Source: Patescibacteria group bacterium
GTDB lineage: Bacteria > Patescibacteriota > Patescibacteriia > CAIXNZ01
DNA: 64,000 nucleotides
Direction: 5' to 3'
NCBI GenBank assembly: GCA_041651155.1
Contig: JBAZJU010000001.1
Span: 91,932-155,931 of the forward strand
The stretch's first letter is position 1; each line of letters starts with the position of its first letter. Below the pieces are notes generated by a model that worked only from the letters and a program-made list of their open reading frames with translations, had not been told where the DNA came from and ran no database searches. This document shows positions 1 to 62,632 of the stretch, piece by piece. A program made the translations under genes and the position numbers.

Positions 1-2
1 AT

Positions 3-335
3 GCCGTCTCTATCTTTTGCGCCATTGAGGAATTAGGGAAATTAAGATTGATCTCAAAGGAGCTTCAGCAAAAATTAATTAAGGCGGCAATAAGGTATCG
101 TGAAAGTAACAAGGGACGAAAAAGGTTTGATTACATTGATTTGCAATCAACCATAAGAGTAACGACATTAGCTTATAGCAGCGCAATCTCCAGGCAGAAC
201 CCTTATAAGATTGAAATGCAGGCTATTTCAAAATGCCCGGATGCCGGAGTGTTGGCCGAAATTTTTTTTGAGGAAAAGCCCGAAAGTGAAGATTGGAAAA
301 TTTCTATCAGAAGTTGCAGCCAATGGAACGATTAA
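3..335 (+). CDS. 3' fragment of a hypothetical protein; the reading frame is open to the window start, and the ORF track places the start at TTG 48
   Basis: The ORF at 48..335 has no in-frame stop back to position 3. No recognisable motif. Confidence 0.3.
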   Translation, partial: AVSIFCAIEELGKLRLISKELQQKLIKAAIRYRESNKGRKRFDYIDLQSTIRVTTLAYSSAISRQNPYKIEMQAISKCPDAGVLAEIFFEEKPESEDWKISIRSCSQWND

Positions 336-564
336 TATCGTTCCTTTTTAATTATGCGAATTTCTGGATTAATGGCAGATGCCCACTTCCTTTGTTAAAA
401 ATAATGCGAATAAACTACGAATATTTCTAGACAAAAAATTGTTTAGAAATGGGCAATCTTTTTATTTTTATGGTATAATTATGGCAGTTGAAAGTTAGAA
501 AGTTTATAAAGTTGAAAGATATACTTTATGAACTTTCTACTTTTTAACTTTTAACTAAAATTCT

Positions 565-906
565 ATGACATTGCCAAATGTTAATGACCCTCAGGTCAAA
601 AAAGACATTGAGGAAAACAAATTAATTGCAGCTATCGGTTACATCGGGATTTTGTGTTTAATCCCGTTGCTTCTAAAGCCAAAATCTCAGTTTGCTAAAT
701 TTCACGGTAAGCAGGGTTTAATTTTAGTTATCGGAGAATTGATTAATATGATCATAGGAATTGTCCCAGTGATTGGCTGGTTTTTGGCCATGATCGGAGG
801 CATTGCTTTAATTATTTTAAGCATCTTGGGAATTTTAAAATCGCTTAACGGTGAATATTGGGAAATGCCGTATTTGGGAGAATATGCGAAGAAGATTAAT
901 ATTTGA
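565..906 (+). CDS. DUF4870-like small membrane protein
   Basis: Two to three TM helices and a KFHGKQGL-type motif characteristic of DUF4870. A TGgTATAAT extended -10 lies upstream at about 470-478. Confidence 0.5.
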   Translation: MTLPNVNDPQVKKDIEENKLIAAIGYIGILCLIPLLLKPKSQFAKFHGKQGLILVIGELINMIIGIVPVIGWFLAMIGGIALIILSILGILKSLNGEYWEMPYLGEYAKKINI

Positions 907-954
907 CGGATTAACACGAATTTAAGACGAATTTAAAATAAAAATAAAAAAAAT

Positions 955-1365
955 ATGGAATTGCTCTATAAAGATTTAAGCTACAGAGTTGTTGGCCTAT
1001 GTATAGAAATTTATAACACTTACGGCTCTTATCATAAAGAAATAGTTTACCATCGCTTGATAAAAGAGAAATTAGATTTAAATGGTATTGATAATATTTC
1101 TGAACCAAAAATTGACTTATATTCACAAGATTCTGGTAAGATTCCTGGTTGTTATGTGCCAGATTTTTTGATTGATAATAAAATTATATTAGAAATAAAA
1201 GCAACTAGAGTAAATTGTTTTAGAGATGAAGAGCAATTAATCCATTATTTAAAAGTTAGCAATTATGAGTTGGGGTATTTAATAAATTTTGGTTTAAGAA
1301 GTTTATATTTTAAAAGGTTAATATATACTAATGATAAAAAGAAAATCCATACAAAAATTCGTTAA
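955..1365 (+). CDS. GxxExxY family protein (PD-(D/E)XK nuclease-like)
   Basis: The N-terminus reads LSYRVVGLCIEIYNTYGSY..E.VY, which fits the TIGR04256 GxxExxY pattern. This family is common in CPR genomes. Confidence 0.5.
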   Translation: MELLYKDLSYRVVGLCIEIYNTYGSYHKEIVYHRLIKEKLDLNGIDNISEPKIDLYSQDSGKIPGCYVPDFLIDNKIILEIKATRVNCFRDEEQLIHYLKVSNYELGYLINFGLRSLYFKRLIYTNDKKKIHTKIR

Positions 1366-1397
1366 ATTTGTTTTAATTAGCGTTAATTAGTATAGCA

Positions 1398-2855
1398 ATG
1401 AAGCGTACAAAAATCGTTTGCACCATCGGCCCCAGTTCCAATAGTGAAAAGGTTTTAACCCAGTTAATAAAGGCCGGCATGAATGTCGCCAGGCTTAATT
1501 TTTCCCATGGAACATATCCGGAACATTCAAGAATTATTAAGTTAATCCGTAAGTTGAGTAAAAAATTTGATCAGCCAATTACCATACTCCAAGACCTCCA
1601 AGGACCAAGGATTCGCGTTGGATTTATTCCTGGCAAAGGTATTTTTTTAAAAACTGGCAAAAAAATTATTTTAACCACTGATTTGCAGGCTAAAACTATT
1701 TTGCCAGGGGAGCGTGTGCCTTCAAAAATTCCAGTCACTTATGACAAATTGCATTTGGATGTGAAAAAAGGCGAGCCAATTCTCCTGGCTGACGGAGTTG
1801 TAAAGTTGAAGGTTGTAAAGTTGAGCGGTAAGGATATTGAATGCTTAATTTTAAATGATGGGTTTATCAGCTCGCAAAAAGGAATTAATTTGCCTGAAAC
1901 AAGACTTTCCATTCCGACAATTACAACTAAGGATAAAAAGGATTTAGAGTTTGGCATTAAAAATAATGTTGACATGGTGGCCTTGTCTTTTGTGCGTACT
2001 GCCAAAGATGTTCAGGATTTGAAAAATATTATCCGCAAATTGGAAATTAAATTCCAGGGCAAAAAATCTCTGCCTACCCAGATCATTGTGAAAGTTGAAA
2101 AAAGGGAAGCAGTGAAAAATTTTAATCAGATTTTAAAAATTACTGATGGCGTGATGGTGGCGCGCGGTGATTTGGGAATTGAAATGCCAGAAGAAGATGT
2201 GCCTTTGGCGCAAAAAATGATGATTGAAAAATGTTTGAATGCTGCCAAGCCGGTCATTGTGGCTACGCAAATGTTGGAATCAATGATTCTAAATCCGCGG
2301 CCCACGCGGGCTGAAGTTTCAGATGTGGCTAATGCGGTGATTGATCACACTGATGCGGTTATGCTTTCTGGCGAAACAGCCGAAGGTAAGTATCCTATTG
2401 AATCTGTAAAGACTATGGCCATAATTTCCGAACGCACTGAAAAATCAAAATATGATGATTTCCAATTCCGTTTTATGTTCAAAGATAAGTTCCATACTGA
2501 TGATGCCATTTCCTCCAGCGCCAATTCTTTAGCTCGTAATTTAAAAGCCAAGGCAATTTTGGTCGCTTCGTTAACAGGTTATACGGGCCGCATTGTTTCA
2601 CGCTATCGTCCGGAACTGCCGATTTTAGTCACCACCAATAATGAAAAAGTCAGGCACCAATTAAATTTAAGCTGGGGAGTTGTGCCTTTTGTTTTGCCTA
2701 AATGCCAGACGATTGAAGATTTGATAGCCAAGGCTTTGATTTATATAAAAAATAAAAAATTCGTTAAAAGGGGTGATAAAATCATTATTATTGCCGGGTT
2801 TCCGCTTGGTAAAAGCGGGAATGTGAATTGGATAAAAATACAGGAAATTAAGTAA
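1398..2855 (+). CDS. pyk: pyruvate kinase
   Basis: TKIVCTIGPSS, NVARLNFSHG, the MVARGDLGIEMP active-site region and a C-terminal regulatory domain. Length 485 aa. Confidence 0.9.
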   Translation: MKRTKIVCTIGPSSNSEKVLTQLIKAGMNVARLNFSHGTYPEHSRIIKLIRKLSKKFDQPITILQDLQGPRIRVGFIPGKGIFLKTGKKIILTTDLQAKTILPGERVPSKIPVTYDKLHLDVKKGEPILLADGVVKLKVVKLSGKDIECLILNDGFISSQKGINLPETRLSIPTITTKDKKDLEFGIKNNVDMVALSFVRTAKDVQDLKNIIRKLEIKFQGKKSLPTQIIVKVEKREAVKNFNQILKITDGVMVARGDLGIEMPEEDVPLAQKMMIEKCLNAAKPVIVATQMLESMILNPRPTRAEVSDVANAVIDHTDAVMLSGETAEGKYPIESVKTMAIISERTEKSKYDDFQFRFMFKDKFHTDDAISSSANSLARNLKAKAILVASLTGYTGRIVSRYRPELPILVTTNNEKVRHQLNLSWGVVPFVLPKCQTIEDLIAKALIYIKNKKFVKRGDKIIIIAGFPLGKSGNVNWIKIQEIK

Positions 2856-2950
2856 TTGGTAATTAGTAAATGGTAATTGGTAAATTGTAAAATTCATTTG
2901 TTAGTAATTAGTAATTTGTAGTTGGTAAACAGTAAATTGAATAATTATTT
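2856..2950. repeat. Degenerate tandem GGTAATT(A/G)GTAAAT-type repeats upstream of the four-helix-bundle gene; an inverted copy lies at 3338-3370
   Basis: ggtaattagtaaatggtaattggtaaattg is upstream. The reverse complement of the downstream ttactaataaccatttaccaattac gives agtaattggtaaatgg. Confidence 0.6.
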
Positions 2951-2956
2951 ATAAAT

Positions 2957-3337
2957 ATGAAAATTACAAAGGTTGAGGATTTAAATGTTTGGCAGGAAGC
3001 AAGATTGTTTTGTAATGATATTTACGATTTGATTAAAAATTTTCCAGCCGACGAAAAATATAATATAGTTAGGCATTTAAGAGAAAATGCTCGTGGCATT
3101 CCGGCAAATATTGCTGAAGGATTTTATAGATATCATTATCAGGATAGTATAAGGTTTTATTTAATCGCCAGAGGTTGTATTGGTGAAATGAAGAGCGATT
3201 TATATATTAGTTTGGATAGGGGATATATTACTAAAGAAAAATTTGAAGATTTAAATAATAAAATTGAAAAAATTTTAATAATGTTAAATGGGATGATTAA
3301 ATCCACCAAAAATCAAATAAAAAACACCAATAACTAG
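2957..3337 (+). CDS. four-helix-bundle protein (TIGR02436, 23S rRNA intervening-sequence protein family)
   Basis: LRENARGIPANIAEGFYRY...FYLIARGCIGEMKSDLYIS motif set. Length 126 aa. Confidence 0.75.
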   Translation: MKITKVEDLNVWQEARLFCNDIYDLIKNFPADEKYNIVRHLRENARGIPANIAEGFYRYHYQDSIRFYLIARGCIGEMKSDLYISLDRGYITKEKFEDLNNKIEKILIMLNGMIKSTKNQIKNTNN

Positions 3338-3424
3338 TTACTAATAACCATTTACCAATTACTTTCCCCCAATTTTAGCCCCAAACGGGTTTTTTTTATT
3401 TTCAAATCTTATCCACACCTAAAA

Positions 3425-3456
3425 TAATTATTATATTGTATAAATTGTGATATAAT
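3425..3456 (+). promoter_or_regulatory. Candidate sigma70 promoter with an extended -10 (TGaTATAAT) for the giant surface-protein gene
   Basis: ttgTGATATAAT at 3448-3456, about 125 nt upstream of the ATG at 3582. Confidence 0.4.
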
Positions 3457-3581
3457 AAGGTTAGAAAAATTCAAAAATGATTAATTTATATATTGCGAAA
3501 AGAAAGGGAGAATACTTAAAGCAAGATTGTTTTGGGTGTGTTTATATTTTAATTAAATATTCATAAAATAAACTTTAATAT

Positions 3582-6500
3582 ATGTATAAGCTCAAAGGAA
3601 ATATAAGCAAATTTTTAATAAGCAGTTTGCTTCTGGGAATAGCCTTAAGTCCGCCAGGGGTTTTGGCAGCCACAACTATTGGAGCTGATATTACTACAGG
3701 TGGCAATTTACAAGTAGATGGAGGGTTGCAGTTTACAAGCGGCGCGGCGAACAATTATATCCTAAGTTCAGATGCGACGGGAAACGCCACCTGGATTTCA
3801 GTTGATACTTCATTGGGTACTTCAAATACAGACAGTTTGCCCCAAGGCGCAACTAACCTTTATTACTCTGATGCTGCTGTAGATGCGCGGATCACTTTGC
3901 AAAAAGGAGCCTTAAACGGCTTGGCAGAACTTGATGCCGGCGGCAAGGTGCCTTCGGGGCAATTACCAGCTATTGTAATTACTAATGTTTATGTGGTGGC
4001 TGACATAACTGCCAGAGACGCTTTAGTTGTTCAGACAGGAGATGTGGCAGTTGTTTTAGATGCTGGAGGAGGCGCAGGTGATTCAAGAACTTATATTTAT
4101 GATGGTACTGTTTGGCAGGAATTATTAGACCCGACAAATATATATCTTAGCAAAGCAAATAATCTATCAGATTTGACCAATGTTGCCTTAGCGCAAACTA
4201 ATTTGGGTTTGGGTACAACTGATACGCCGACATTTTCCGGCTTGATTCTTTCTAATTATCTTGATTTTACGCCAGGAGCGCCTCCTGTTTATAGCGAAGG
4301 TAGAGTCTTTTATGACAGTACAGATAAAGCTTTAACTTATTATAACGAAGCCTCAGCTGTGTCAGTTAGCCTTGGCCAAGAGGCCATGACCAGGGTTTAT
4401 AACCAGACGGGCAGCCAAATAAATAATGGCCAGGCGGTTTACATTAACGGAGCAAATGGAGACGTGCCGACCGTTGCTCTGGCCAAAGCGGATAGCATTA
4501 TTACTTCCAATGTCGTTGGTATCACAACCATGAATATCCCTGATGGCAGTTATGGCTATATTACTTTTTTTGGCTTAATACATGGCTTAAATACTGCAAT
4601 ATATTCCAGCGGAGATGAACTTTTTCTCTCAGATACCGTAGCCGGCGGATTTACGGCCACACGTCCCAACCAACCGAATATTAGCGTTCCTCTTGGCTTC
4701 ATTGTTAAACCAGGCGCGGGAAATGGCATAGTTTTAGCAGAAATTAGTGCATATAAACACGGAGCGCTTGAAGTAGGTACGGTCGCTTTTGGCGCAGCAA
4801 ACGGCTTAATAATGGGTGATCCAAATAATTTATTCTGGGATAATGCCACCAAGCGTCTGGGTATTGGCACTAATATCCCTAATTATACTTTAGACGTAGC
4901 CGGTGATATTAAAGCTGGTGATGGTTCTCTGGTTTTACTTGGCTCTCAAACAAATCCTGATCCAGCTGGAATTAACGGCGCCATGTATTATAATACCTCA
5001 ACTGACAAATTCCGCTGTTTTGAAAATAGCGTTTGGAAAGATTGCGCTGATCCCAGCACTATGCATACGCTTCAGTCTGTCTATGACAATGGCGCAACCA
5101 TTACAACAGCCGGGGCTGTAGATATTGGCTTCACATTATCATCAGGTAATTTCACTGTTTCAGGCGCAGGCTCGGTTGACTTAACGCCGACAGCGGCTTC
5201 CAGTTTTACTTCTGGAGATGCTCTAACACTAACAGCTGGCGCTGCCTCTACCTGGGGAACATCTACTGGGAATTTAAACCTGCAGGTAGCCGGTGCTGGT
5301 GCGACAGCTAATGTGCAAATAGGCGCGGGAGTTGCTTCAGCTACGCCTGATTTGCTTGTTTTAGATCTTGGTAGCGCTGAACCAGCTGGCAGCGCAGGCA
5401 GCATTTATTATAACTCCGGTACAAATAAATTTCGTTGTTATGAAAATGGGGTCTGGGTTAATTGTATTTCAGCTTCAGGCAGCGCAGTCCTTTCCGGCAT
5501 TACTGCCGCAACAGCAGGAAATAGCATAAATAATGGCGATAATGCCCAGGTATGGAATTGGTCATTGACCTCTTTGAATAAGATTGGGTTAAAAATCAGT
5601 GAAAATAGTGCTTCAACCGCAACTGGTACTCCTGCACTGATGGAAGCAAAAACCTTAGCCACTTCTACGGCTACACCCTTGCGCGTAATTAACCAAGGAA
5701 CAGGGCCAAGTTTTATTGTTGAAAATGCAGACAGTGATGCTACTCCTACTTTATATATTGAACCTGCCGGTGCATTACCTATCGTTCACACAGGCCATGT
5801 GGCTATTGGCAGTAATTTTTTTGATCCAACTGCCCCTGAAAAATTAAAAGTAGATTCTGGAACTGAAGATTCTTTTAATATCATCAGCGCTGCCGGTGAT
5901 CTAAATAATTATTTGCAGATTAATGTTACAAATAGGAATGCTGGTAACGATGCTTCTTCTGATTTGGTTGCTACGGCAGATAATGGCGATGAAAGTAATT
6001 ATTATGTGGATTTAGGTATTAATTCATCTGGCTATAGTAATCCTGCTTATTCAATTGGCGGTCCAGATGACTCTTATCTTTTAGCTCAAGGCGGGTTGGG
6101 AGCTGGCGGGAACTTGTCAGTTGGGACAGCTACAACTGGCACAGTTATAAAATTCCATACAGGCGGTTCAACAGCGGCTGATGAAAAGATGAGGATTGAG
6201 GATAGCGGAAATGTGGGTATCGGCACGACTTCGTTAAATGCAAGATTAGATCTGTCGCCTGCTACAGCTGATGCTTTAAGAATTGAGCCGTATGGCGCAG
6301 TTGCCGGTAATACTGGCAATTTGGAATTAATGGAACTGGCAGCTAATGGTTCTAATTATGTGGGCTTTAAAGCGCCTGACAGTATTGCCGCAAATGTGGC
6401 CTGGACATTGCCAAACGCTGATGGCACACCGAGCCAGGTTTTATCAACCGATGGGTTGGGGACATTGTCATGGTCCAGCGGCGCAACCAATTATTGGCAA

Positions 6501-9500
6501 AGAGTAGGGACTACTTTATCGCCCGCAACTGCCGGTGATGATGTTACGACTACTGGAAATATTTCCACTACCGGTGTTGGAACAATTACTTCAGCTGGTC
6601 TATTAACCGGCAGTTTAGGCTCAACCATATCTGGCGCAGCAATTAGTTTAAATGATAATAGCAATTTTAATACCACTATAAATACAGGCACTTCAACCGG
6701 AACAGTAACAATAGGCAGCGCCAATGCCGGAGCAATTCAAATAATCAGCGGTGCAGGTTTAACTTTAACCGGAGGAGCTGCTTCAAATATTAACACTACA
6801 GCAAGCGATCTTAGCTTTCAGCCGGCTGGGATAGGCACAACAGCCAATGTGCAAATCGGTGTTGGTCAGCCAGGTTCGACTACTCCGGATCTTTTGGGGT
6901 TAGATGTCAAAAGTACGGCAGGAGATCCTGCTTCTGGCGCAGATGGCGCAATGTATTATAATGAAAATTCAAATAAATTCCGTTGCCATGTAAACGGAGT
7001 ATGGGCTGATTGTGATACCACCGGTGGCACGGTTACTTTACAATCCGCTTACAATAGTGGCGCTACAATTACCACTGCAGGTGCAGTTGATCTGGCCTTT
7101 ACCTTAACCTCTGGCAATTTTACTGCTGCCGGGGCTGGTTCGGTCAATTTAACGCCCACGGGTGCTTCCAGTTTTACTTCTGGCGGAGCCTTAACCTTGA
7201 CTGGCGGCGCTGCTTCAACCTGGTCAACCAGCTCTGGAGCTTTGACTTTGACTTCAGCAATAGCCGCTACTTGGGGAACCACAGCCGGAGATTTACAATT
7301 ACAAGTAGCTGGCAGCGGTACAACAGCTAATATAAAAGTCGGCGCTGGTGGCGCTGGTTCAGCAACACCTGACTTATTTGCCCTGGACGTGAAATCAAGC
7401 GCAGGTGATCCGGCTGGCTATAATGGCGCCATGTATTATAATCAATCGTCTAATGTTTTCCGTTGTTATGAAGCAGGCGGCTGGAAAGATTGCGGCGCAA
7501 CAGGAACAGGAGCCGCGACTTTGCAACAGTCATATAATGCCGGGTCAACAATTACTACGGCAGGCGCAGTTGATCTGGCTCTAACTTTAACATCAGGCAA
7601 TTTCACTGCCACGGGCGCTGGTTCAGTTAATTTAACCCCAACGGGCGCCTCAAGCTTTACTTCCGGCGGAGCCTTAACTTTGACTGGCGGCGCAGCTTCT
7701 ACCTGGGGCACCTCAGCTGGCAATTTAGCTTTGCAGGTCGCAGGAACCGGGACAACTGCCAACGTACAAATAGGCGCTGGCGGTGCTGGTTCAACTACCC
7801 CTGATCTTTTGGCAATTGATGTAAAATCAGACGCTGGTGATCCCGCAGGATTTAACGGGGCTATCTATTACAATGCCAATGGTAACCGATTTCGTTGTTA
7901 TGAAAATGGAGCCTGGAAAGATTGCGATGCAGGCGTGGTGGCTTCTTTGCAGACAGCATATAATAACGGAGGAACTATAATAACAAATGGCAGCCCAATT
8001 GCTTTTACTTTGACTTCTGGTGATTTCACTGCTACAGGCGCAGGCGCAGTAAATTTAACTCCGACCAGCGCTTCCAGTTTTACTTCAGGAGGCGCTTTAG
8101 CATTGACCGGTGGCGCTGCCTCAACCTGGGGTACAAGCGCGGGAAATTTATCTTTGCAGTCAGCTGGCACTGGCACATCTGCTAATATTCAGATCGGCGC
8201 AGGCGGAGCAGGTTCAACTACGCCTGACAGCTTGGTGCTAGATATTAAGTCAGATGCCGGCGACCCGGCAGGCACAAACGGAGCCATGTATTATAATGCT
8301 AATACAAATAAATTTAGATGTTATGTAAATGGCGCTTGGCTTGACTGCGATATGAGATCAATCGGCACTGCCAAAGGAGACTTAATAGCTTATACGGCAA
8401 GCAATACTCCTGTTAGATTGCCAGTCGGCGGAACAAATGGTTTTATGTTAATGGTTGATTCAACCCAGGCAACAGGTATGAGATGGGGCGCTAATTTACC
8501 GACAGCTAATTCCATTGATTTTACTGAATTGAAAGACGCTATGACTGTTGATGCCAATACTTCAATAAATTTAGCCGGCAAAAATTTAACAATAAACGAT
8601 CTTACTGGCGGCGGCGCATTAAGCATGTCCACTAATGCTGCTGCTTTGACTTTAACTGCCGGTGCGGCTTCAACCTGGTCAACCACAGCCGGCGCATTAA
8701 CAATAAATTCAGGGACAACAACTCCTGCTGCTTTGAATTTAGGCAGTGCGGGAACAAATGCAGTAGCAATAGGCAATGCGGGCAGTACTTTTGCCCTGAC
8801 TTCCAGCGGCGGTTTAAATGTCTCAACTGGCGGCGCTTTAACAGGGGTGGCTTCACTTGATACGATTAGTACTTCAGCTACAGCATTAACTTTTGCAGGC
8901 GCTGGTTCTGTTTCACCAGGTGGCGCAAACAATTTAACGCTGGGTTCTACCAATACCACCTCAACTACAAACATCCAATCAGGAACAGGCAATATAAATT
9001 TAATGCCCGCAACTGCCGGCACAACCGCCAATGTACAAATTGGCGGGGGCGGGGCAGGTTCCGCCACCCCAGATCTTTTAGCTCTGGATGTAAAATCTAC
9101 CGCAGGTGACCCGGCCGGATTTAATGGAGCCATGTATTACAATGCCAGCGCAAACAAATTTAAATGTTATGAAAATAGCGCCTGGAAAGACTGTGATACT
9201 GCTGGGACGCAAACATTGCAAGCGGCCTATAATGGTGGTGCCACGATTACCACTTCAGGCGGCAGTGCTATTACCTTTACTACGCCAATAGGCTCAAATA
9301 ATGCAGGCTTAGTTATAAATCAAAATAATTCAACTAATAATCCTGTTGCCTTACAGATAACTAATGCCGGCACGGGCAATGATATTACCGCGACTAATTG
9401 GTCTGTGACTAAAGCAGGTAATCTTTCTACCAGCGGGAATATTACTACAACCGGTTCTGGCATAATTACTTCAGCGTCAACCTTGACTGCGTCAAATGGC

Positions 9501-10733
9501 TTTACCATGACAACAGGAGCCTTAGGTTTGACAGCGACATCTGGTTCAATCGGGTTGAGCGGTCTTACTACCACTTCAATTGTAAATACGGGCGCATTGA
9601 CTTTAACCGGCGGAGCCGCTTCAACTTTATCAACAACGGCAGGCAATTTAACCCTGCAGGCGGGTTCAGGCACAGTCAGTTTAGGAACTTCTACAAATTT
9701 AACAGCTGGAGGAGCGCTGACCATTGATTCAAATACCACTAGCGCACTTAATCTGGGGACTGGCGCAAATGCCAAGACAATCACGATGGGCAATAATACA
9801 GGCGCGACAAGTTTAGCTCTCAAGGCTGGAACAGGCAGCATATTAATGTCTGGACAGGCAACAGGCACATCCGCAACATTCATGGGCGTGCCGGTTAAAA
9901 CAGACGCTGGTGATCCTACGACAACTCAAATAAACGGCGCAATGTATTATAATTCAAATTCCAACAAATTCCGCTGTTTTGAAAACAGCGTCTGGAAAGA
10001 TTGCGATACGTCAGGAACGACGACTTTACAGCAAGCGTATAACGCGGGCGCAACTATTACTACCGCAGGCGCAACTGATTTGGCTTTAACCCTGGCCTCT
10101 GGCAATTTTACGGCAAGTGGAGCCGGATCTGTTAATTTAACGCCGACAGGTGCCTCAAGCTTTACTTCAGGCGGCGCTTTAACACTGACTGGCGGAGCTG
10201 CTTCTACCTGGTCAACTAGCGCTGGCAATTTAACTTTGCAAGCAGGTTCTGGCACTGTGAGTTTAGGAACTTCTACAAATTTAACAGCTGGAGGAGCACT
10301 GACTATTGATTCAAACACGACTAGCGCTCTCAATTTCGGCACGGGCGCTAATGCCAAGACAATCACTATCGGTAATTCAACTACTACAACAGCTTTAATA
10401 TTAGATGCAGGCACGGGTGGTGTTAAAATTGGCGATAGTACTGCCACGGCAATAACTAATCATTATTCAGCAACAGCTGCCTTAGATTTTGGTTCAATTG
10501 ATGGAGTTTGCACTTCACTAACGATTACAGTGACGGGCGCAGCAGCCGGAGATACAGCGATTGCAACTCCGACACCTGTTGCAGGCGGGATTGAAACTGG
10601 CACTGATTCAGTTTGGAATACCTATGTTTCAGCGGCTAATACTGTTACTGTTCGAGCCTGTGACACAAATCCCGCAGGTGGCGGCTTTAATGCTGCTTCT
10701 CAAACTTGGCGCGTAGATGTCTGGAAACATTAA
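3582..10733 (+). CDS. Giant secreted repetitive surface protein (2383 aa) with a signal peptide, a tail-fibre-like N-terminal region and eight ~150-aa Cys-pair repeats
   Basis: A single uninterrupted ORF with an N-terminal hydrophobic signal and G/T/A/S-rich composition. It has the LSKANNLSDLTNVALAQTNLGLG motif typical of phage tail-fibre proteins. The motif PDLL.LDVKS.AGDPAG.NGAMYYN...NKFRCYENG.WKDCD recurs eight times. Confidence 0.8.
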   Translation: MYKLKGNISKFLISSLLLGIALSPPGVLAATTIGADITTGGNLQVDGGLQFTSGAANNYILSSDATGNATWISVDTSLGTSNTDSLPQGATNLYYSDAAVDARITLQKGALNGLAELDAGGKVPSGQLPAIVITNVYVVADITARDALVVQTGDVAVVLDAGGGAGDSRTYIYDGTVWQELLDPTNIYLSKANNLSDLTNVALAQTNLGLGTTDTPTFSGLILSNYLDFTPGAPPVYSEGRVFYDSTDKALTYYNEASAVSVSLGQEAMTRVYNQTGSQINNGQAVYINGANGDVPTVALAKADSIITSNVVGITTMNIPDGSYGYITFFGLIHGLNTAIYSSGDELFLSDTVAGGFTATRPNQPNISVPLGFIVKPGAGNGIVLAEISAYKHGALEVGTVAFGAANGLIMGDPNNLFWDNATKRLGIGTNIPNYTLDVAGDIKAGDGSLVLLGSQTNPDPAGINGAMYYNTSTDKFRCFENSVWKDCADPSTMHTLQSVYDNGATITTAGAVDIGFTLSSGNFTVSGAGSVDLTPTAASSFTSGDALTLTAGAASTWGTSTGNLNLQVAGAGATANVQIGAGVASATPDLLVLDLGSAEPAGSAGSIYYNSGTNKFRCYENGVWVNCISASGSAVLSGITAATAGNSINNGDNAQVWNWSLTSLNKIGLKISENSASTATGTPALMEAKTLATSTATPLRVINQGTGPSFIVENADSDATPTLYIEPAGALPIVHTGHVAIGSNFFDPTAPEKLKVDSGTEDSFNIISAAGDLNNYLQINVTNRNAGNDASSDLVATADNGDESNYYVDLGINSSGYSNPAYSIGGPDDSYLLAQGGLGAGGNLSVGTATTGTVIKFHTGGSTAADEKMRIEDSGNVGIGTTSLNARLDLSPATADALRIEPYGAVAGNTGNLELMELAANGSNYVGFKAPDSIAANVAWTLPNADGTPSQVLSTDGLGTLSWSSGATNYWQRVGTTLSPATAGDDVTTTGNISTTGVGTITSAGLLTGSLGSTISGAAISLNDNSNFNTTINTGTSTGTVTIGSANAGAIQIISGAGLTLTGGAASNINTTASDLSFQPAGIGTTANVQIGVGQPGSTTPDLLGLDVKSTAGDPASGADGAMYYNENSNKFRCHVNGVWADCDTTGGTVTLQSAYNSGATITTAGAVDLAFTLTSGNFTAAGAGSVNLTPTGASSFTSGGALTLTGGAASTWSTSSGALTLTSAIAATWGTTAGDLQLQVAGSGTTANIKVGAGGAGSATPDLFALDVKSSAGDPAGYNGAMYYNQSSNVFRCYEAGGWKDCGATGTGAATLQQSYNAGSTITTAGAVDLALTLTSGNFTATGAGSVNLTPTGASSFTSGGALTLTGGAASTWGTSAGNLALQVAGTGTTANVQIGAGGAGSTTPDLLAIDVKSDAGDPAGFNGAIYYNANGNRFRCYENGAWKDCDAGVVASLQTAYNNGGTIITNGSPIAFTLTSGDFTATGAGAVNLTPTSASSFTSGGALALTGGAASTWGTSAGNLSLQSAGTGTSANIQIGAGGAGSTTPDSLVLDIKSDAGDPAGTNGAMYYNANTNKFRCYVNGAWLDCDMRSIGTAKGDLIAYTASNTPVRLPVGGTNGFMLMVDSTQATGMRWGANLPTANSIDFTELKDAMTVDANTSINLAGKNLTINDLTGGGALSMSTNAAALTLTAGAASTWSTTAGALTINSGTTTPAALNLGSAGTNAVAIGNAGSTFALTSSGGLNVSTGGALTGVASLDTISTSATALTFAGAGSVSPGGANNLTLGSTNTTSTTNIQSGTGNINLMPATAGTTANVQIGGGGAGSATPDLLALDVKSTAGDPAGFNGAMYYNASANKFKCYENSAWKDCDTAGTQTLQAAYNGGATITTSGGSAITFTTPIGSNNAGLVINQNNSTNNPVALQITNAGTGNDITATNWSVTKAGNLSTSGNITTTGSGIITSASTLTASNGFTMTTGALGLTATSGSIGLSGLTTTSIVNTGALTLTGGAASTLSTTAGNLTLQAGSGTVSLGTSTNLTAGGALTIDSNTTSALNLGTGANAKTITMGNNTGATSLALKAGTGSILMSGQATGTSATFMGVPVKTDAGDPTTTQINGAMYYNSNSNKFRCFENSVWKDCDTSGTTTLQQAYNAGATITTAGATDLALTLASGNFTASGAGSVNLTPTGASSFTSGGALTLTGGAASTWSTSAGNLTLQAGSGTVSLGTSTNLTAGGALTIDSNTTSALNFGTGANAKTITIGNSTTTTALILDAGTGGVKIGDSTATAITNHYSATAALDFGSIDGVCTSLTITVTGAAAGDTAIATPTPVAGGIETGTDSVWNTYVSAANTVTVRACDTNPAGGGFNAASQTWRVDVWKH
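4975..10025 (+). repeat. Intragenic tandem repeats, eight units of about 430-480 nt, each encoding the MYYN..FRCYENG.WKDC motif; a near-identical ~200-nt sub-duplication lies at 9590-9790 and 10170-10370
   Basis: The motif occurrences start near nt 4984, 5404, 6950, 7430, 7863, 8287, 9130 and 9945. The last two sub-blocks are about 90% identical at the DNA level. Confidence 0.75.
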
Positions 10734-10825
10734 TTAAAAATTAATGCCGCGAAGCGGCAGGCTGTCAGACTTGGACAAGGCCAGGTTTAGGCAGGATAAT
10801 TAAAAATTAAAAAATTAAAAACACT

Positions 10826-11545
10826 ATGGACATCAAATCATTGAGACCCAAAGACAAAGCTGGCAAAAAGAAAATGCCGAAAATTTTAAAAACAGTTTTA
10901 ATAATTCTTTTGATCGCTTTTGTAGGTTTTGGTATTTATGCTGAATTAAGCAATTTAGGCTACATTAAAACTTTTCAATTAGCCTGGCAAATCCAGCACC
11001 AGCAGCAGCTTTCAGCTGAAGACAAAGCTATTTTAGCTCAATTGAAAAAAATTATGGTTCTGCCCGACGATGTTACACCTACCATGGCGGTTATTACTGA
11101 TATTGACGCCTTAAAAAAACAGCAGCCAACATTTTTTGCCAATGCCAAAAATGATGATCGTTTAATAATTTATCCTGAGCAGGCAATTATTTTTGACGCT
11201 GCTGCTAATAAAATTATTAAAGTCGGCCCGGTGCAAATTAACCAGGCTACCCAGATCCAGTCTGAAAATTTTGCGATTTATAATAGCTTAAAAGATGATC
11301 CGAATAATTTACAGACAACTGCGATGGAAGCAAAAATTAAGGCAGCTTTTGGTAATGCGGTGGTGTCTGTCAAGGCTAATTCTGCAAAATCTGATTATCC
11401 CAAAACTTTAGTGATTGATATTGCAGGCAATAATCCGGATATTCAAAAAATTGCTGATGCTTTGGGCGGTCAAATTTCAGGTCTGCCAGTAGGAGAGAAA
11501 AAACCAGAGGGAGTAGCTGTTTTGGTGATTATTGGAAAGGAATAA
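10826..11545 (+). CDS. Membrane-anchored protein with a LytR_C-like C-terminal domain
   Basis: An N-terminal TM helix, and the C-terminal PKTLVIDIAGNNPDIQKIADALGG...VAVLVIIGKE resembles the LytR/CpsA/Psr C-terminal domain. Confidence 0.35.
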   Translation: MDIKSLRPKDKAGKKKMPKILKTVLIILLIAFVGFGIYAELSNLGYIKTFQLAWQIQHQQQLSAEDKAILAQLKKIMVLPDDVTPTMAVITDIDALKKQQPTFFANAKNDDRLIIYPEQAIIFDAAANKIIKVGPVQINQATQIQSENFAIYNSLKDDPNNLQTTAMEAKIKAAFGNAVVSVKANSAKSDYPKTLVIDIAGNNPDIQKIADALGGQISGLPVGEKKPEGVAVLVIIGKE

Positions 11546-11628: not shown

Positions 11629-11901
11629 ATGGAGAGAAAATTCGATTTAGAAGATCGCACTTTAATTTTTGGAAAAGAAATAATACATTTGTGTAAATCT
11701 TTGCCTGCAAATACTATAAATTTCAGGTTAATTGATCAAATTATACGTTCAGGGACTTCTATGGGAGCGAATTATAGAGAGGCGAATGAAACAGAAACCA
11801 AAAAAGATTTCAAACATAAAATAAGGATTTGCTTAAGAGAGTGTAAAGAAACGGGATATTGGTTGGAACTTATTGAAGAAGCTAACCCCCCCCCCTTTTA
11901 A
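11629..11901 (+). CDS. four-helix-bundle protein (TIGR02436), apparently frameshifted at a C10 homopolymer; the C-terminus continues in the +1 frame to about 11970
   Basis: The N-terminus is paralogous to the 46668 protein (DLEDRTL.F.K..L.LCK...GANYREAN). The ORF stops as ...EANPPPF. The +1 frame then encodes KEKLRKLLQENNELRKIFASILIKSE, matching the paralog's C-terminus ...QLARIFASIGAKK. Confidence 0.6.
   Translation: MERKFDLEDRTLIFGKEIIHLCKSLPANTINFRLIDQIIRSGTSMGANYREANETETKKDFKHKIRICLRECKETGYWLELIEEANPPPF
11886..11895. repeat. C10 homopolymer tract at the frameshift point
   Basis: cccccccccc sits in an otherwise AT-rich genome, exactly where the reading frame of the four-helix-bundle gene breaks. 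Confidence 0.8.
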
Positions 11902-12208: not shown

Positions 12209-12706
12209 ATGCTTAAATCATTTATTCATATAATTTCAACCATGAACAAAAAAAAGATTGAAAAATTTTTAAAATCAAAATTATTTTTTATTTTGGTTAT
12301 TATTGTTATTGTCCCTTTGGTAACAGCCGGAGTCTGGGCGGCAACAAATATAGGGACTGATATAGATACTGATGGGAATCTAACTGTTAGTGGCATGGCT
12401 GGTATAAAGAGCGCTACGCCAAGCTTTGATTTAGATGTTAATGGCAATGCCAGAATAACGAATAATAACTTTTTATATTTTGGCGGAACAGGAGCGCTTG
12501 ATACCACTGGTTCTTTACAACATGATGGTACGGATTTTATTTTCAGTACTCCTATTATGCCAACGGGTTATAAATCCAGTGGTGGATCTCCTGGCATAAC
12601 AATTGGAGTTACTGTTAAAGATGGAGATGGCAATAATTGCGCGCTTTTTTTCTCTGATGGTTTGCTGATAGTCACTGATTGCCCGCCTATCCCTCCGCCC
12701 ACTTGA
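12209..12706 (+). CDS. Small secreted protein sharing its N-terminal module with the giant surface protein
   Basis: A signal/TM segment followed by AATNIGTDIDTDGNLTVSG, compared with ATTIGADITTGGNLQVDGG in the 3582 protein. An alternative start lies at M12 (12242). Confidence 0.45.
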   Translation: MLKSFIHIISTMNKKKIEKFLKSKLFFILVIIVIVPLVTAGVWAATNIGTDIDTDGNLTVSGMAGIKSATPSFDLDVNGNARITNNNFLYFGGTGALDTTGSLQHDGTDFIFSTPIMPTGYKSSGGSPGITIGVTVKDGDGNNCALFFSDGLLIVTDCPPIPPPT

Positions 12707-12750: not shown

Positions 12751-14352
12751 ATGAGCCTTAATTTGAATAGGAAAATTTTCATTATTTTAATTGCGTTTAT
12801 ATTTGTATTCGCTCCATTTGTTGTCGGCGCGATTAACGATGTGACAATCAACGGCATTGTTAACTTTAATCTTCTGACCGCTGATACAGCAGATTCAACT
12901 ACCATTTTAGCCGATACAGGCGGGCAGGTTACCTTGTTTAATGTTCAGTCAAATTATATTGATATTACTTTGGATAATTTATCGTCAGTAACTTTTAATG
13001 CTACTGCGCCCAGCCGCTATATTAGAATTTCTTATCAATCTGGTTCAACAGATTATACTATAGCGCCGGCTTGCCCAACAACAACTGCAACTTTAACTGG
13101 TACAGGCGCGCAAGTTGTTTTGCGCCTGGAAGTTTACACGACTAATATCTGTCCTCCGGGTCCAGGCGGAGGCGGTCATACGCCTGTTTTCCCGACTAAT
13201 TACTCGGTAAAAATAAATAGTGGAGCAGCTACAACATCTACCACTAGCGTGACTGTAAATTTAAGCGCTCAAAATGCTGTAGAAGTAGTGGTCAGCAATG
13301 ATCCGAGTTTTATTGGCGCTACCTGGCAATCATTTACAAACCCTCTGAATTTACCCTGGACGCTAACCTCTGGTGATGGCACAAAAACTGTTTATGTAAT
13401 ATACAAAAGTTCAGATGGCAACCTAAGCCCGACTTTAAGCGCTTCTATAATTTTGCAAACTGGTACAGTCGTGCCGCCTGTGGTTCCGCCAGTTGTACCA
13501 CCTGTGGTTCCTCCTCCACCAGGACAATGTGCGATTGATTGTTCTTCAATTACTTATGACCTTTATATTGTTAATCCAAATGGGACAGAAAGGCATATTA
13601 ATACGCTTTATGCCAAGGCTCTTGCTTTAGCTCCTGAAAAAATTCAGTATAGCTTTGAAGATAATGTAGATTTTAATTATAAGGATGTTATTATTATTGT
13701 AGATAAAAGCCAGTGCTCGAGCAGAAAAATTGAAGTAACGGCAGTCAATGGCTCTTGGCACCATCAGATCAAGATAAAATTATTTAATAACGGGCAATTA
13801 TCTGAAGATATATTACTGTGGCCGGATTCCCATTTAGCCATTGGCCAAACCAAGACCATAAATTTTGTAGATTATTCCAGCCTTTGTTTGCAGGAAGTGA
13901 CTTTGAATTCAGGCGATGTTTTTAAAGGCAGCGGAGACACGGTTTATTATTATGGCGCTGATGGCAAGCGTTATATTTTTCCCACTCTCGGCACCTACTT
14001 AAGCTGGTATCCAGATTTTAGCCAGGTTAAAAGAGTGCCGGACAGTCAGTTGCCCAGCATTCCATTAGGTACAAATATTACTTATAAACCCGGCGTTAAA
14101 ATGCTAAAAGCCCAGACTTTGCCAAATGTTTACGCGGTTGATCTCCATGGCGTTTTAAGATGGATTACTTCTGAGACAGTCGCCGCCAGCTTATATGGTT
14201 CGGAATGGAATAAAAACATAGATGATTTAAGCGATGCATTTTTTAGTGATTATATAATTGGGGACGATATTACGAGCGCAACTATTTTTATTCCCAGTTT
14301 GACAAGCGCAGCTGCAATTGATATTAATTATGATAAGCGGATTACGCCTTAA
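12751..14352 (+). CDS. Secreted protein with a (PVVP)n proline linker and the C-terminal ~125-aa shared surface-targeting domain
   Basis: A signal peptide, PPVVPPVVPPVVPPPP, and a C-terminal VYYYGADGKRYIFPTLGTYLSWYPDFSQVKRV...LRWITSETVAASLYGSEW that is homologous to domains in the 47459, 54421, 56633 and 58323 proteins. Confidence 0.6.
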   Translation: MSLNLNRKIFIILIAFIFVFAPFVVGAINDVTINGIVNFNLLTADTADSTTILADTGGQVTLFNVQSNYIDITLDNLSSVTFNATAPSRYIRISYQSGSTDYTIAPACPTTTATLTGTGAQVVLRLEVYTTNICPPGPGGGGHTPVFPTNYSVKINSGAATTSTTSVTVNLSAQNAVEVVVSNDPSFIGATWQSFTNPLNLPWTLTSGDGTKTVYVIYKSSDGNLSPTLSASIILQTGTVVPPVVPPVVPPVVPPPPGQCAIDCSSITYDLYIVNPNGTERHINTLYAKALALAPEKIQYSFEDNVDFNYKDVIIIVDKSQCSSRKIEVTAVNGSWHHQIKIKLFNNGQLSEDILLWPDSHLAIGQTKTINFVDYSSLCLQEVTLNSGDVFKGSGDTVYYYGADGKRYIFPTLGTYLSWYPDFSQVKRVPDSQLPSIPLGTNITYKPGVKMLKAQTLPNVYAVDLHGVLRWITSETVAASLYGSEWNKNIDDLSDAFFSDYIIGDDITSATIFIPSLTSAAAIDINYDKRITP

Positions 14353-23013: not shown

Positions 23014-23090
23014 GGAGCGGTAGTTCAGTTGGTTAGAACGCTACCCTGTCACGGTAGAGGTCACGGGTTCGAGTCCCGCCCGCTCCGCAC
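23014..23090 (+). tRNA. tRNA-Asp (anticodon GTC)
   Basis: A cloverleaf with GGAGCGG/CCGCTCC acceptor, GTTC..GAAC D-arm, CTACC-CTGTCAC-GGTAG anticodon arm and GGGTTCGAGTCCC T-arm. CCA is not encoded. Confidence 0.85.
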
Positions 23091-30160: not shown

Positions 30161-30549
30161 TGGAGATGGCGGGAATTGAACCCGCGTCTAGAAAGCCTTT
30201 TAAAATACTTCTACAAGCTTATTTTAGATTAAAATTACGCCTTAAGATAATAATCTAAACAAAAATCTTAGGGCCTGCCTTAAATTTTTAGCTTAATAAC
30301 TTAAGGCTAAATTATTGAGCGAGCCTGAATTTATGGCACCCAATACCTTTTATCAGGCATCAAAGGCGTGGATGGTTGCTGTTTTAGTTAAACTGCAACT
30401 GACGCAAGGTTAAAAGCAAAAGCTGCTTTAACATTGCTTAATAAGTTTTTTGCACTTATTAGATTTCTATTTTTAGTTTTACGAGATTAAATAGCATGCT
30501 CGGCTTGCGATATTTTTAAAAGATCTTCCTATCGAGGCCTGTCATCCCC
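30161..30549 (-). ncRNA. ssrA: tmRNA (SsrA)
   Basis: On the - strand the 5' end is GGGGAUGACAGGCCUCGAU. The 3' end GCGGGUUCAAUUCCCGCCAUCUCCA gives the T-arm and an acceptor pairing with the 5' GGGGAUG. A 9-bp terminator hairpin (30141-30160) follows. smpB is the next gene upstream, with a TTACAAT-repeat promoter region at 30550-30630. Confidence 0.8.
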
Positions 30550-51044: not shown

Positions 51045-51259
51045 TGGAAGAATGGTGGTTTGGGAGGAATTTATCAACCTCCCCCAATCCCCCTCCTTTT
51101 CTAAGGAGGGGGTATGGAGGTTATCATGACCTAAGGTGCAGGGCTTTGGGTTTTGTTTTTTGGGGAAGATCGTGGAGGGAGTGGGACGGTTGATTTGTTT
51201 TGTTTAGGGATTTATGGTATTATAAAGGGAGCAATTATTTAATATTCAATTTAAAAAAT

Positions 51260-62539: not shown

Positions 62540-62632
62540 TAGATACAAATTTACAAATTAACTATAAATTATTACAAATATTCAGAAACCAATTCGTAGT
62601 TATATGTATCTGATTTGTAGATTTGTAACAAT
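62506..62632. repeat. 127-bp direct repeat, copy 1 (covers the GT2 stop codon and intergenic region); copy 2 at 62936-63062
   Basis: The copies differ at two positions. A diverged third remnant of the GT2 3' end (encoding NLYWRVVKLFIFW*) lies at 62640-62700. Confidence 0.75.

Follow-up and report, generated by a model that had tools for sequence, protein, structure and literature searches.

The 7.1-kb open reading frame at 3582..10733 (+ strand) of the window, the 64,000-nucleotide stretch of DNA from a Patescibacteria group bacterium that was analysed here, appears to encode a very long, Sec-exported surface fibre of a CPR cell, probably homotrimeric and assembled from modules of the phage-tail-fibre type. 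We assign this reading a probability of roughly 60%. The protein is best read as a CPR variant of the trimeric, mosaic fibres represented by phage tail fibres and by the mosaic adhesive trimer (MAT) proteins of Bdellovibrio bacteriovorus. Such a fibre would be a good candidate for the structure that holds epibiotic bacteria to their hosts, as the first-pass annotation had proposed. The support for that role is indirect and comes from the homology of several modules to those of phage tail fibres, from homology to the MAT prey-recognition fibres of Bdellovibrio (PMC10769870), and from the way in which homologues keep the N-terminus but shuffle the distal modules; attachment itself is what we infer from these likenesses. 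Giant surface proteins of CPR have been proposed as host-attachment fibres before (PMC8080830).

The gene is indeed a single open frame from ATG to stop, and its 2383-aa product is a 100% match to an NCBI entry, 'MAG: hypothetical protein WC460_00505 [Patescibacteria group bacterium]', on a 348-kb contig. A scan with a 19-mer window finds a sole hydrophobic segment, at aa 11-35, followed by the sequence VLA↓ATT. This arrangement is consistent with a predicted Sec signal peptide and thus supports the earlier description of the protein as secreted; the homologues have a similar N-terminal signal layout. The protein as a whole is rich in T/G/A/S and has few charges. At 3377-3400 a hairpin and T-run resembling a terminator mark the end of the preceding gene, and the promoter-like site listed in Table 1 suggests that the giant ORF may be the first of a transcription unit.

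Table 1. Features of the giant ORF and of linked genes, with nucleotide positions in the window
Feature	Position (nt)	Residues	Strand	Remarks
Promoter-like site 5' of giant ORF	3541..3569		+	consensus scan only
Predicted Sec signal peptide	3582..3668	1-29	+	K-rich n-region, FLISSLLLGIAL core, VLA↓A cleavage site
Conserved N-terminal head	3669..4277	30-232	+	begins ATTIG.DI.T.GNL.V.G; proposed cell-proximal attachment end
Beta-tulip module	4254..4781	225-400	+	probable trimerisation module, common to phage tail fibres
Cys knob 1	4884..5045	435-488	+	motif; Cys 479/488
Cys knob 2	5304..5465	575-628	+	motif; Cys 619/628
Inserted module	5466..6536	629-985	+	MAT-type beta-helix stretch aa 810-887 (nt 6009-6242)
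Cys knob 3	6852..7013	1091-1144	+	motif; Cys 1135/1144
Cys knob 4	7332..7493	1251-1304	+	motif; Cys 1295/1304; AF2 model
Cys knob 5	7764..7925	1395-1448	+	motif; Cys 1439/1448; AF2 model
Cys knob 6	8187..8348	1536-1589	+	motif; Cys 1580/1589
Inserted module 'GTAKGDLIAYTASNTPVRLPVGGTNG...'	8349..8681	1590-1700	+	match to PHROG phrog_33513, 1.7e-6
Cys knob 7	9033..9194	1818-1871	+	motif; Cys 1862/1871
Inserted module	9195..9551	1872-1990	+	common to P0005, P0010, P0013
Duplicated linker block, copy A	9591..9794	2004-2071	+	compared with copy B
Cys knob 8	9843..10004	2088-2141	+	motif; Cys 2132/2141
Duplicated linker block, copy B	10173..10376	2198-2265	+	compared with copy A
C-terminal ~100-aa domain	10434..10730		+	proposed distal tip; Cys 2310, 2360 conserved; ends WRVDVWKH
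Partner gene, 239-aa protein	10826..11545		+	one N-terminal membrane segment and extracytoplasmic domain
165-aa ORF	12209..12706		+	same mature N-terminus AATNIGTDIDTDGNLTVSG as fibre, directly after hydrophobic segment
Linked gene, 533-aa secreted protein	12751..14352		+	conserved N-terminal domain and 'YYYGADGKRY.FP' domain

The head and the beta-tulip module (Table 1) share homology with segments of phage tail proteins. The tail-fibre-like motif that had been noticed in the head (LSKANNLSDL..NLGLG) is the stretch LSKANNLSDLTNVALAQTNLGLG at aa 189-211 (nt 4146-4214), which is 47% identical to an annotated tail fiber protein of Escherichia phage SRT8 (E 1e-4). The wider head aligns with minor tail proteins of Gordonia phages, and PHROG tail families match it at 5e-9 to 1e-3, so that this part of the earlier description is confirmed. 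The model of aa 225-400, with a pLDDT of 92, shows the beta-tulip fold known from decoration and appendage proteins of phages, and a match search finds the module frequently in phage tail fibres. In published structures, such decoration and appendage proteins are trimers.

Downstream of the beta-tulip module, the shaft is punctuated by eight copies of a knob of ~55 aa with the motif ..DPAG.NGAMYYN...NKFRCYENG.WKDC, each with two invariant Cys nine residues apart; together they account for 16 of the 18 Cys of the protein. The eight motif copies and their Cys pairs had been described as a series of ~150-aa repeats. The copies and the pairs stand, but a regular array does not: the knobs follow one another at 140, 516, 160, 144, 141, 282 and 270 aa, a spacing made uneven by the insertion of unrelated modules. 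Tandem Repeats Finder detects no array in the ORF because the units are too divergent and interrupted. The knob matches 4,236 protein clusters. There are also short proteins with a single knob immediately before an end domain of ~150 aa, and a sister motif that lacks the Cys is present in S74-type tail-fibre-like proteins. Searches of Pfam, PHROGs and NCBIfam with the whole protein and with single repeat units gave no match for the repeat or the C-terminus, and sequence and profile searches of the PDB (whole protein, repeat, beta-tulip and C-terminal profiles) gave none that was significant.

Modelling of a repeat pair, which the first-pass annotation had suggested, gave a poor monomer AF2 model of knob-linker-knob overall (pLDDT 61.5), in which the knob itself is a three-stranded antiparallel sheet with a pLDDT of 70-84. 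The low confidence of the monomer is compatible with an obligate oligomer and does not prove one. A Foldseek search of this model against the PDB returned matches at E>0.7 only, from which we draw no conclusion. In the strand register of the model, read by eye from the DSSP string rather than from coordinates, the two Cys of a knob do not pair directly across strands. This leaves an intrachain disulfide uncertain, and a bond between chains would be equally possible.

Of the inserted modules, that at aa 629-985 links the protein to a characterised adhesive fibre. In a phmmer search of the PDB, aa 810-887 match the crystallised tip of Bd2133 (8ond, E 2.8e-6) and Bd2439 (8ol4, E 0.008), and a capping-loop-like motif, VGIGTTSLNARL, lies in the same module at nt 6213-6248. 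This module is also found in 12 homologues, including S74-type proteins. The module at aa 1590-1700 recurs in nine homologues, in some as several copies, and that at aa 1872-1990 matches no family in Pfam or PHROG. The first-pass annotation had named a match of the repeat to a characterised adhesin or tail-fibre repeat as evidence against it, and this applies in part. One inserted module matches MAT and the knob has a Cys-less sister in S74-type proteins; the Cys knob itself has no characterised relative, and the protein as a whole is less novel than had been supposed.

The last two sub-blocks had been taken for a recent duplication, about 90% identical in DNA, that showed the array to be still expanding. 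Neither point is supported. The two copies of the linker block share 81-82% DNA identity and 94% protein identity, with 90% reached only in a core of ~90 nt; their codons differ by 28 synonymous and 4 non-synonymous changes, and the block is also present in proteins from other organisms. It is therefore an old module under selection and gives no evidence of array expansion. These values also bear on whether several repeat-containing genes were collapsed or joined during assembly, the least probable of the readings that we weighed. The sequence does come from a metagenome assembly, the protein is known from one contig, and its internal repeats reach 60-82% DNA identity. At no more than 82% over 200 nt, however, the repeats are too divergent to collapse, and the frame is open across 7.1 kb. 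Furthermore, in independent assemblies from other samples the ORFs are complete, at 1,300-5,000 aa, and share the N-terminus, modules and C-terminus of this one.

Comparison of these homologues shows that the N-terminus is kept, the remainder is shuffled and the C-terminal domain varies. The head (first ~215-250 aa) is 48-68% identical in P0002, P0007, P0008 and P0015, with rearranged modules downstream. At the other end, the C-terminal ~100-aa domain is kept in P0002, P0004, P0007, P0015, P0021 and P0058, and different end domains occur in other homologues; the types recognised are C1q-like, Peptidase_G2/S74-like and WRVDVW.H, assigned by eye except for one Pfam match to Peptidase_S74. The phage-tail domains found in the homologues are Peptidase_S74, DUF5907, BppL_N and PTR. 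One source labels homologue P0002 a trimeric autotransporter adhesin. The C-terminal domain of the fibre has no relative in Pfam, PHROG or the PDB, and because of this no ligand can be proposed.

Genome loci with the shared repeat unit are nearly all from CPR, and a pattern scan with the linker alignment (A2) finds 79 loci among genomes. In the orthologous locus L003, the flanking genes are 68-81% identical to those of the window, yet the fibre has 1827 aa and three knobs; directly upstream of it lies a second giant with PG-binding domains. One Saccharibacteria chromosome holds several knob loci. Literature searches found no description of the fibre or knob family in CPR.

Many giants per genome that look like paralogues, within a very large family, could also indicate a structural part of a fibrous envelope or coat, acting as spacer, protective layer or means of cell-cell cohesion rather than as a specific host-recognition adhesin. 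We consider this unlikely, though the most probable of the alternatives. The T/G/A/S-rich, low-charge composition would suit such a coat, and the thick fibrous coat of Vampirococcus has been attributed to giant proteins (PMC8080830). Against it, receptor-binding fibres, those of phages and MAT, are the proteins that combine a fixed N-terminus with exchanged distal modules and tips; proteins that form a coat lattice are not. In addition, the protein has no SLH or other wall-binding domain. Anchoring of the fibre by sortase, SLH or PG-binding domains was likewise rejected: Pfam finds none of these, and the protein ends in WRVDVWKH with no C-terminal hydrophobic segment. We also rejected a trimeric autotransporter adhesin, since no Pfam family matches any part of the protein, YadA-type anchors included, and the C-terminal ~100 aa look soluble, with no hydrophobic or barrel-like end.

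The fibre gene is chromosomal, syntenic, and genetically linked to genes for a small membrane protein and a wall-binding protein. It sits among housekeeping genes, which encode pyruvate kinase, PPDK, Lgt, PGI and a mechanosensitive-channel-like protein, and a second organism has the locus in synteny. The ORFs scanned around it, from about 0.5 to 26 kb of the window, include no gene for a capsid, terminase, tail or integrase. This context speaks against a virion component encoded by a phage or prophage tail-fibre gene, which we regard as very improbable. In favour of such an origin are the several modules homologous to phage tail proteins and one phage-like contig, L088, which has PHROG matches to major head and tail-fibre families and encodes a 788-aa protein with a true Cys knob. 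The protein has a Sec-type signal segment, however, and two pattern scans of 2.9 million viral contigs found seven related loci, one with a true Cys knob by pattern, against the 79 genome loci. We rejected a prophage origin on gene context and synteny.

ORFs on either side of the fibre gene (2957-3337 and 11629-11901) match 23S_rRNA_IVP, the first also the PHROG 'Avd protein of DGR', and locus L003 holds an IVP gene as well. Because these Avd-like genes flank the fibre gene, we considered whether a diversity-generating retroelement (DGR) or another hypervariation system has it as its variable target; CPR genomes are rich in DGRs (10.1101/2020.04.01.020958). There is, however, no template/variable repeat pair and no near-identical repeat involving the ORF within the 64-kb window, no reverse transcriptase among the ORFs scanned around the gene, and no Pfam match for the C-terminus, C-type lectin families included. 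Without a repeat pair in the window or a reverse transcriptase among the scanned ORFs, we rejected a DGR target, the chance of which we place slightly below even that of a virion gene.

Linkage to the partner gene also supports the surface-fibre reading. Homologues of the partner gene adjoin knob genes in 19 of 82 related loci, always on the strand of the knob match, and in at least 13 they start within ~60 nt of the fibre-gene stop. All of the 60 partner homologues are from CPR where the organism is named, and none is annotated; a resemblance to LytR_C is limited to one homologue and is weak (E 0.027). The small protein at 12209 does carry the N-terminal module of the fibre, as had been claimed, with AATNIGTDIDTDGNLTVSG common to both; this 165-aa ORF is not called in L003. 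The 533-aa protein is 45-56% identical to neighbours of the fibre gene in L001, L002 and L003. PG_binding_1 domains are found in its homologues, with SLH in one of them; in five of the six loci examined, there is a wall-binding protein near the fibre gene. Wall-binding domains sit in the linked gene family and not in the fibre. Neither the partner nor the 533-aa protein has a relative in the PDB or NCBIfam.

In the mechanism that we propose, the exported chains would trimerise outside the membrane, with the conserved head docking to the envelope. The partner, tethered to the membrane and encoded by the next gene, could be an anchor or an assembly factor; its position recalls the assembly-chaperone genes that are often found behind those for phage tail fibres. 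The neighbour that binds peptidoglycan may be involved as well. No wall anchor can be recognised in the fibre itself, and these roles for the neighbouring genes are guesses. The eight Cys knobs would act as disulfide-stapled clamps that hold a T/G/A/S-rich, beta-structured shaft in register, and the two-Cys C-terminal domain at the far end would bind a ligand on the host-cell surface. Scaled from the ~550 Å model of Bd3182, the shaft might be on the order of 100-170 nm long. Specificity would change as modules and tips are shuffled between lineages.

More tentatively, phage tail-fibre modules may have been domesticated across CPR into Sec-exported, disulfide-stapled trimeric host-recognition fibres, with the knob as a new trimer clamp, the downstream membrane protein as the extracytoplasmic counterpart of an assembly chaperone or anchor, and shuffled tips and modules setting the hosts. 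We hold this wider proposal to be possible rather than probable. If it is true, the host range of uncultivated CPR lineages would be predictable from sequence. Knowledge of the means by which ultra-small CPR/Patescibacteria recognise and hold their bacterial hosts is largely limited to type IV pili and a small number of adhesins in cultivated Saccharibacteria. The locus points to a large unannotated family that combines the architecture of phage and Bdellovibrio receptor-binding fibres with a conserved partner gene, and whose sequence would allow the attachment repertoires of different metagenomes to be compared.

Among known systems, the giant proteins of Vampirococcus lugosii (PMC8080830) and the adhesins of Southlakia epibionticum (PMC10633639) come from the same kind of organism and have the same proposed role, in a fibrous surface and in host attachment. 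The Southlakia adhesins are essential for epibiotic growth, and the proteins are described as carrying WD40, PKD, integrin, fibronectin, VCBS and dockerin domains; term searches of both papers find no mention of a tail-fibre/MAT-type architecture, a Cys knob or a partner gene. Phage tail fibres, spikes and appendages (T5 L-shaped fibre pb1, K1F endosialidase with its S74 chaperone, phi29 gp12) share the head and beta-tulip modules and a mosaic architecture with the CPR fibre, and Cys-less sisters of the knob occur in S74-type tail-fibre-like proteins. The small gene directly 3' of the fibre gene recalls tail-fibre assembly genes, by analogy only. Unlike phage fibres, the CPR fibre is encoded outside any phage genome or structural cluster, has a Sec-type signal and is far longer than most, and its Cys knobs occur in only one predicted viral contig.

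The MAT fibres of B. bacteriovorus (e.g. Bd2133, Bd2439 and Bd3182; Caulton et al. 2024, PMC10769870) are also among the closest known systems. For these proteins surface location, trimer state and ligand binding have been shown; for the CPR fibre they are predicted. They are ~1,000 aa long and the CPR fibre is 2-5 times longer; its head is of a different, phage-minor-tail-like type and is joined to a beta-tulip module, its shaft is punctuated by Cys-pair knobs that the MAT paper does not mention, and a dedicated downstream gene for a membrane protein is a feature of the CPR system. The owner of MAT is a Gram-negative predator, whereas the fibre described here is from a CPR organism; CPR cells have a single membrane in published electron micrographs (PMC8080830). 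The homology to the trimeric beta-helix region of Bd2133 covers only ~80 aa (aa 810-887; 8ond covers 662-1031). Capping-loop-like [VL]GIGT..[PL]...L motifs occur in both, two of them in the CPR fibre, which resembles the 'NS74' subgroup in lacking an S74 domain that some of its homologues have. Like the MAT fibres, the CPR fibre is a protein of the cell, encoded on the chromosome and related to phage tail fibres; both combine a conserved N-terminus with exchanged distal modules and tips, and both come from bacteria that live on other bacteria.

The fibre protein (2383 aa) is encoded by a single uninterrupted ORF, as the first-pass annotation had claimed, and is identical to an NCBI entry from a 348-kb contig, 'MAG: hypothetical protein WC460_00505 [Patescibacteria group bacterium]'. 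It is enriched in T, G, A, S, L and N and contains only 18 Cys, two of which lie within the final 100 residues. The other 16 form the eight predicted pairs, with nine-residue spacing, in the motif ..DPAG.NGAMYYN...NKFRCYENG.WKDC; we call the ~55-aa unit around each pair a knob. Secretion had also been proposed, and because the sole hydrophobic segment (aa 11–35) is followed by VLA|ATT the product does look Sec-exported. Hydrophobic-segment analysis of the whole protein found no membrane or sortase-type anchor at the C-terminal end. The mature N-terminus, AATNIGTDIDTDGNLTVSG, is shared with the small downstream ORF, as had been noted. The G+C content of the giant ORF (43–48%, window 4001–10000) exceeds that of most of the window (33–39%), which fits its Gly/Ala/Thr/Ser-rich composition.

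Most of the first-pass description thus holds, but the proposed repeat layout fared less well. Rather than forming a regular array of ~150-aa units, the knobs lie at uneven intervals (140, 516, 160, 144, 141, 282 and 270 aa), an effect of the insertion of three unrelated modules (aa 629–985, 1590–1700 and 1872–1990). Two linker blocks, copies A and B, had been read as a recent duplication with ~90% DNA identity in a still-expanding array. Their DNA identity is 81–82%, their proteins are 94% identical with 28 synonymous and 4 non-synonymous codon differences, and the block is also present in other organisms' proteins, all of which contradicts that reading. On these counts the block is an old module under selection, uninformative about ongoing expansion. 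It is also unlikely that the giant ORF is an assembly chimera, since its repeats have diverged too far to collapse and the same architecture is recovered from independent assemblies.

Features in and around the fibre locus and elsewhere in the window
Feature	Position	Strand	Remarks
Avd-like (23S-rRNA-intervening-sequence) four-helix-bundle ORF	2957-3337	+	
Fibre gene	3582-10733	+	
Linker block, copy A	9591-9794		
Linker block, copy B	10173-10376		
GC-rich perfect hairpin	10745-10759		TGCCGCGAAGCGGCA; 12 nt 3' of fibre stop
Promoter-like site	10772-10800		10/12; between hairpin and partner gene
Partner gene	10826-11545		directly downstream of fibre gene; 239 aa, one N-terminal membrane segment, extracytoplasmic domain
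Avd-like ORF, shorter copy	11629-11901	+	90 aa; IVP gene at equivalent place in L003
Small ORF	12209-12706		
533-aa ORF	12751-14352		homologues adjoin fibre gene in L001, L002, L003 and P0002 locus
VYYYGADGKRY domain copies	13904-14135, 47556-47787, 54518-54749, 57822-58053, 59458-59556		
tRNA-Asp gene	23014-23088	+	
tmRNA gene	30161-30549	-	tag AKNLLSNVKAAFAFNLASVAV
Second large ORF	47459-50956	+	1165 aa
Near-identical direct repeats	51190-51271 / 53169-53250		93% over 82 nt
Near-identical direct repeats	62506-62644 / 62936-63074		96% over 139 nt

When the whole protein was searched, no Pfam or NCBIfam family was matched and the sole PHROG match was weak (E 0.003, a function-unknown family); more matches emerged once it was searched as separate segments. 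The head had been described as tail-fibre-like, and aa 46–310 indeed match five PHROG tail, minor-tail and tail-fibre families (E 5e-9 to 1e-3). In tblastn against annotated phage genomes, aa 95–235 match Gordonia phage minor tail proteins (36% identity, 84% query coverage) and a Xylella phage tail protein, and the Escherichia phage SRT8 tail fiber protein aligns precisely on the LSKANNLSDL...NLGLG stretch. The next module, aa 225–400, occurs in 30 homologous proteins, marine phage-like fibres among them, and an AlphaFold2 model from the alignment of these segments is confident and all-beta (pLDDT 91.9, pTM 0.84). Its fold is the beta-tulip known from phage decoration and appendage proteins, whose assemblies are trimeric. 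A Foldseek search of predicted viral structures with this model gave 128 matches at E<=1e-3, the best with a TM of 0.9 and 25–40% identity, under the names tail fiber-like, intramolecular-chaperone (S74) domain, collagen triple helix, Mtd N-terminal domain and lambda Stf repeat. Proteins of these kinds are trimeric fibre proteins.

Whole-protein homologues of the fibre carry the phage-tail domains Peptidase_S74, DUF5907, BppL_N and PTR. The insert at aa 629–985 matches the crystal structure of the Bdellovibrio Bd2133 tip (8ond, E 2.8e-6) and that of Bd2439 (8ol4, E 0.008), both mosaic adhesive trimer (MAT) fibres. The region matched is an intertwined trimeric beta-helix with capping loops (PMC10769870).

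The knob has no relative in Pfam, PHROG or the PDB. AlphaFold2 modelling of a knob–linker–knob monomer gave moderate confidence in the knobs only (pLDDT 70–84), each modelled as a sheet of three antiparallel strands (MYYN / FRCY / WKDC) and then a short helix, and a fold search with this weak model returned nothing significant. The T/G/A/S-rich linker takes no fold as a monomer, which matches, short of proof, what would be expected of an intertwined oligomeric shaft. Both knob Cys are invariant across 64 diverse knobs; in the modelled strand register, as read from the DSSP string without coordinates, they are not direct cross-strand partners, and the presumed disulfide could be intrachain or interchain.

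Searching 1.84 billion cluster representatives with a 56-position knob profile gave 4,236 proteins at E<=1e-3, 1,836 at E<=1e-10 and 234 at E<=1e-30. Some weaker matches are to a Cys-less sister motif, G.I.YN....K.E.Y..G.W..L, which is repeated in S74-type tail-fibre-like giants. Many short proteins, one from a 1.2-Mb Saccharibacteria contig, consist of a single knob followed directly by a ~150-aa end domain, an arrangement that would fit a knob serving as neck or clamp ahead of the tip. Four knob proteins of ~330–350 aa (P0062, P0066, P0068 and P0069) have a conserved 'GGGG.PKESHVIFFA.....F' tail directly after the knob, which resembles a C-terminal signal for sorting or processing.

Scanning a set of genomes, one for each species, with the repeat-unit alignment, whose patterns sat in the linker, yielded 79 loci. 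Those credibly named are nearly all Patescibacteria (CPR): Saccharibacteria and Andersen-, Falkow-, Uhr-, Peregrini-, Berkel-, Nomura-, Moranii- and Collierbacteria. Labels such as Gammaproteobacteria, Pseudomonadales or Bdellovibrionales are attached to a minority; most of these labels come from a single automated MAG series, and we suspect that they are unreliable. Among 2.9 million viral contigs, the linker-based scan found four related loci and the knob-based scan three, and by pattern only one of these viral loci has a true Cys knob. This locus (L088), a phage-like contig, encodes, at 5032–7395, a 788-aa protein with one such knob among head and tail genes and has PHROG matches to major head, tail fibre and virion structural families; it may represent a CPR phage with the knob module in common with its host's fibres.

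The fibre gene is preceded, in order, by genes for a PD-(D/E)XK protein, pyruvate kinase and an Avd-like 23S-rRNA-IVP protein, and followed by those for a mechanosensitive-channel-like protein, PPDK, Lgt and PGI; no phage genes were seen among the scanned ORFs around it. Synteny extends to the orthologous locus L003 of a different sample, where a fibre gene is accompanied by a 246-aa protein (68% identical to the partner), an IVP gene, a 501-aa PG_binding_1 protein (51–56% identical to the 533-aa ORF product), a channel-like protein (81% identical to its counterpart) and PPDK. A virion tail fibre is an unlikely identity for the giant protein, as gene context, synteny and signal segment all argue against it. 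It is also unlikely to be the target of a diversity-generating retroelement (DGR), because the window lacks a template/variable repeat pair and no reverse transcriptase was found among the scanned ORFs.

The L003 fibre has 1827 aa and three knobs only, and aligns well with the window fibre over just the first ~200 residues (68%), the remainder being rearranged. The homologues P0002, P0007 and P0015 likewise have a conserved N-terminus and are mosaic beyond it, and C-termini vary among homologues. Judged from these alignments, the homologues follow the pattern seen in phage fibres and the tip-swapping MAT family. Directly upstream of the L003 fibre gene, a second giant gene (1–6639, at least 2,212 aa) runs into the contig end; it has no Cys knobs, ends in the YYYG domain plus two repeats that by eye resemble PG-binding ones, and appears wall-anchored. 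The P0002 locus has four prepilin-type N_methyl genes upstream, one of at least 1,289 aa, suggesting a possible connection of fibre loci with type IV pilus-like genes.

In 19 of 82 related loci, most of which cover just 3 kb to either side of the match, a partner homologue adjoins a knob-containing gene. Every one of the 19 shares the strand of the knob match, and 13 start within about 60 nt after the knob ORF stop. Partner identity falls to 25–35% in distant lineages, so the linkage is old. Of 60 database homologues, every named one is a CPR 'hypothetical protein' lacking Pfam domains; several lie on contigs equal in length to those bearing other giants, hence probably on the same contigs. 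One homologue has a weak LytR_C match (E 0.027). Homologues of the 533-aa ORF product bear PG_binding_1 and, in one case, SLH. The fibre itself has no wall anchor, and we infer that the partner and the 533-aa protein may tether or assemble it.

Elsewhere, a ~75-aa 'VYYYGADGKRY.FPN..TY.SWY' domain without a Pfam match recurs in five window ORFs (DNA identity 61–77%); because it adjoins PG_binding_1 domains in related loci, it may serve CPR secreted proteins as a cell-wall-binding module. It opens the second large ORF, which has an N-terminal hydrophobic signal-like segment, a T/A/V/S-rich repetitive region after the domain and no Pfam match. The 82-nt direct repeats look like duplicated upstream regions that include the starts of two small ORFs.

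Homology to two kinds of receptor-binding fibres, together with the conserved gene neighbourhood, makes an attachment-fibre role plausible for the giant protein; a non-specific fibrous coat is a less likely alternative. The family is large, lacks annotation and is open to direct testing. The underlying concept, phage-derived chimeric fibres on bacteria living on bacteria and giant CPR surface proteins, is already published. A fibrous attachment surface built from giant surface proteins of CPR epibionts has been proposed (PMC8080830), and adhesins are essential for the epibiotic growth of a Saccharibacterium (PMC10633639), but the proteins in both studies were described with domains other than those found here. 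MAT proteins, which are chromosomal, phage-related and ~1,000 aa long, form trimeric fibres on the surface of the predator. Their N-terminal domain is conserved, their tips (S74, TNF-like, C-type lectin and novel sandwiches) are exchangeable, and one MAT protein binds prey glycans (PMC10769870); a term search of that paper found no mention of CPR. The fibre protein shares with them a homologous beta-helix module, a mosaic logic and a lifestyle context, but it is 2–5 times longer, has a different type of head, contains a beta-tulip module and Cys knobs, and is encoded beside a linked partner gene.
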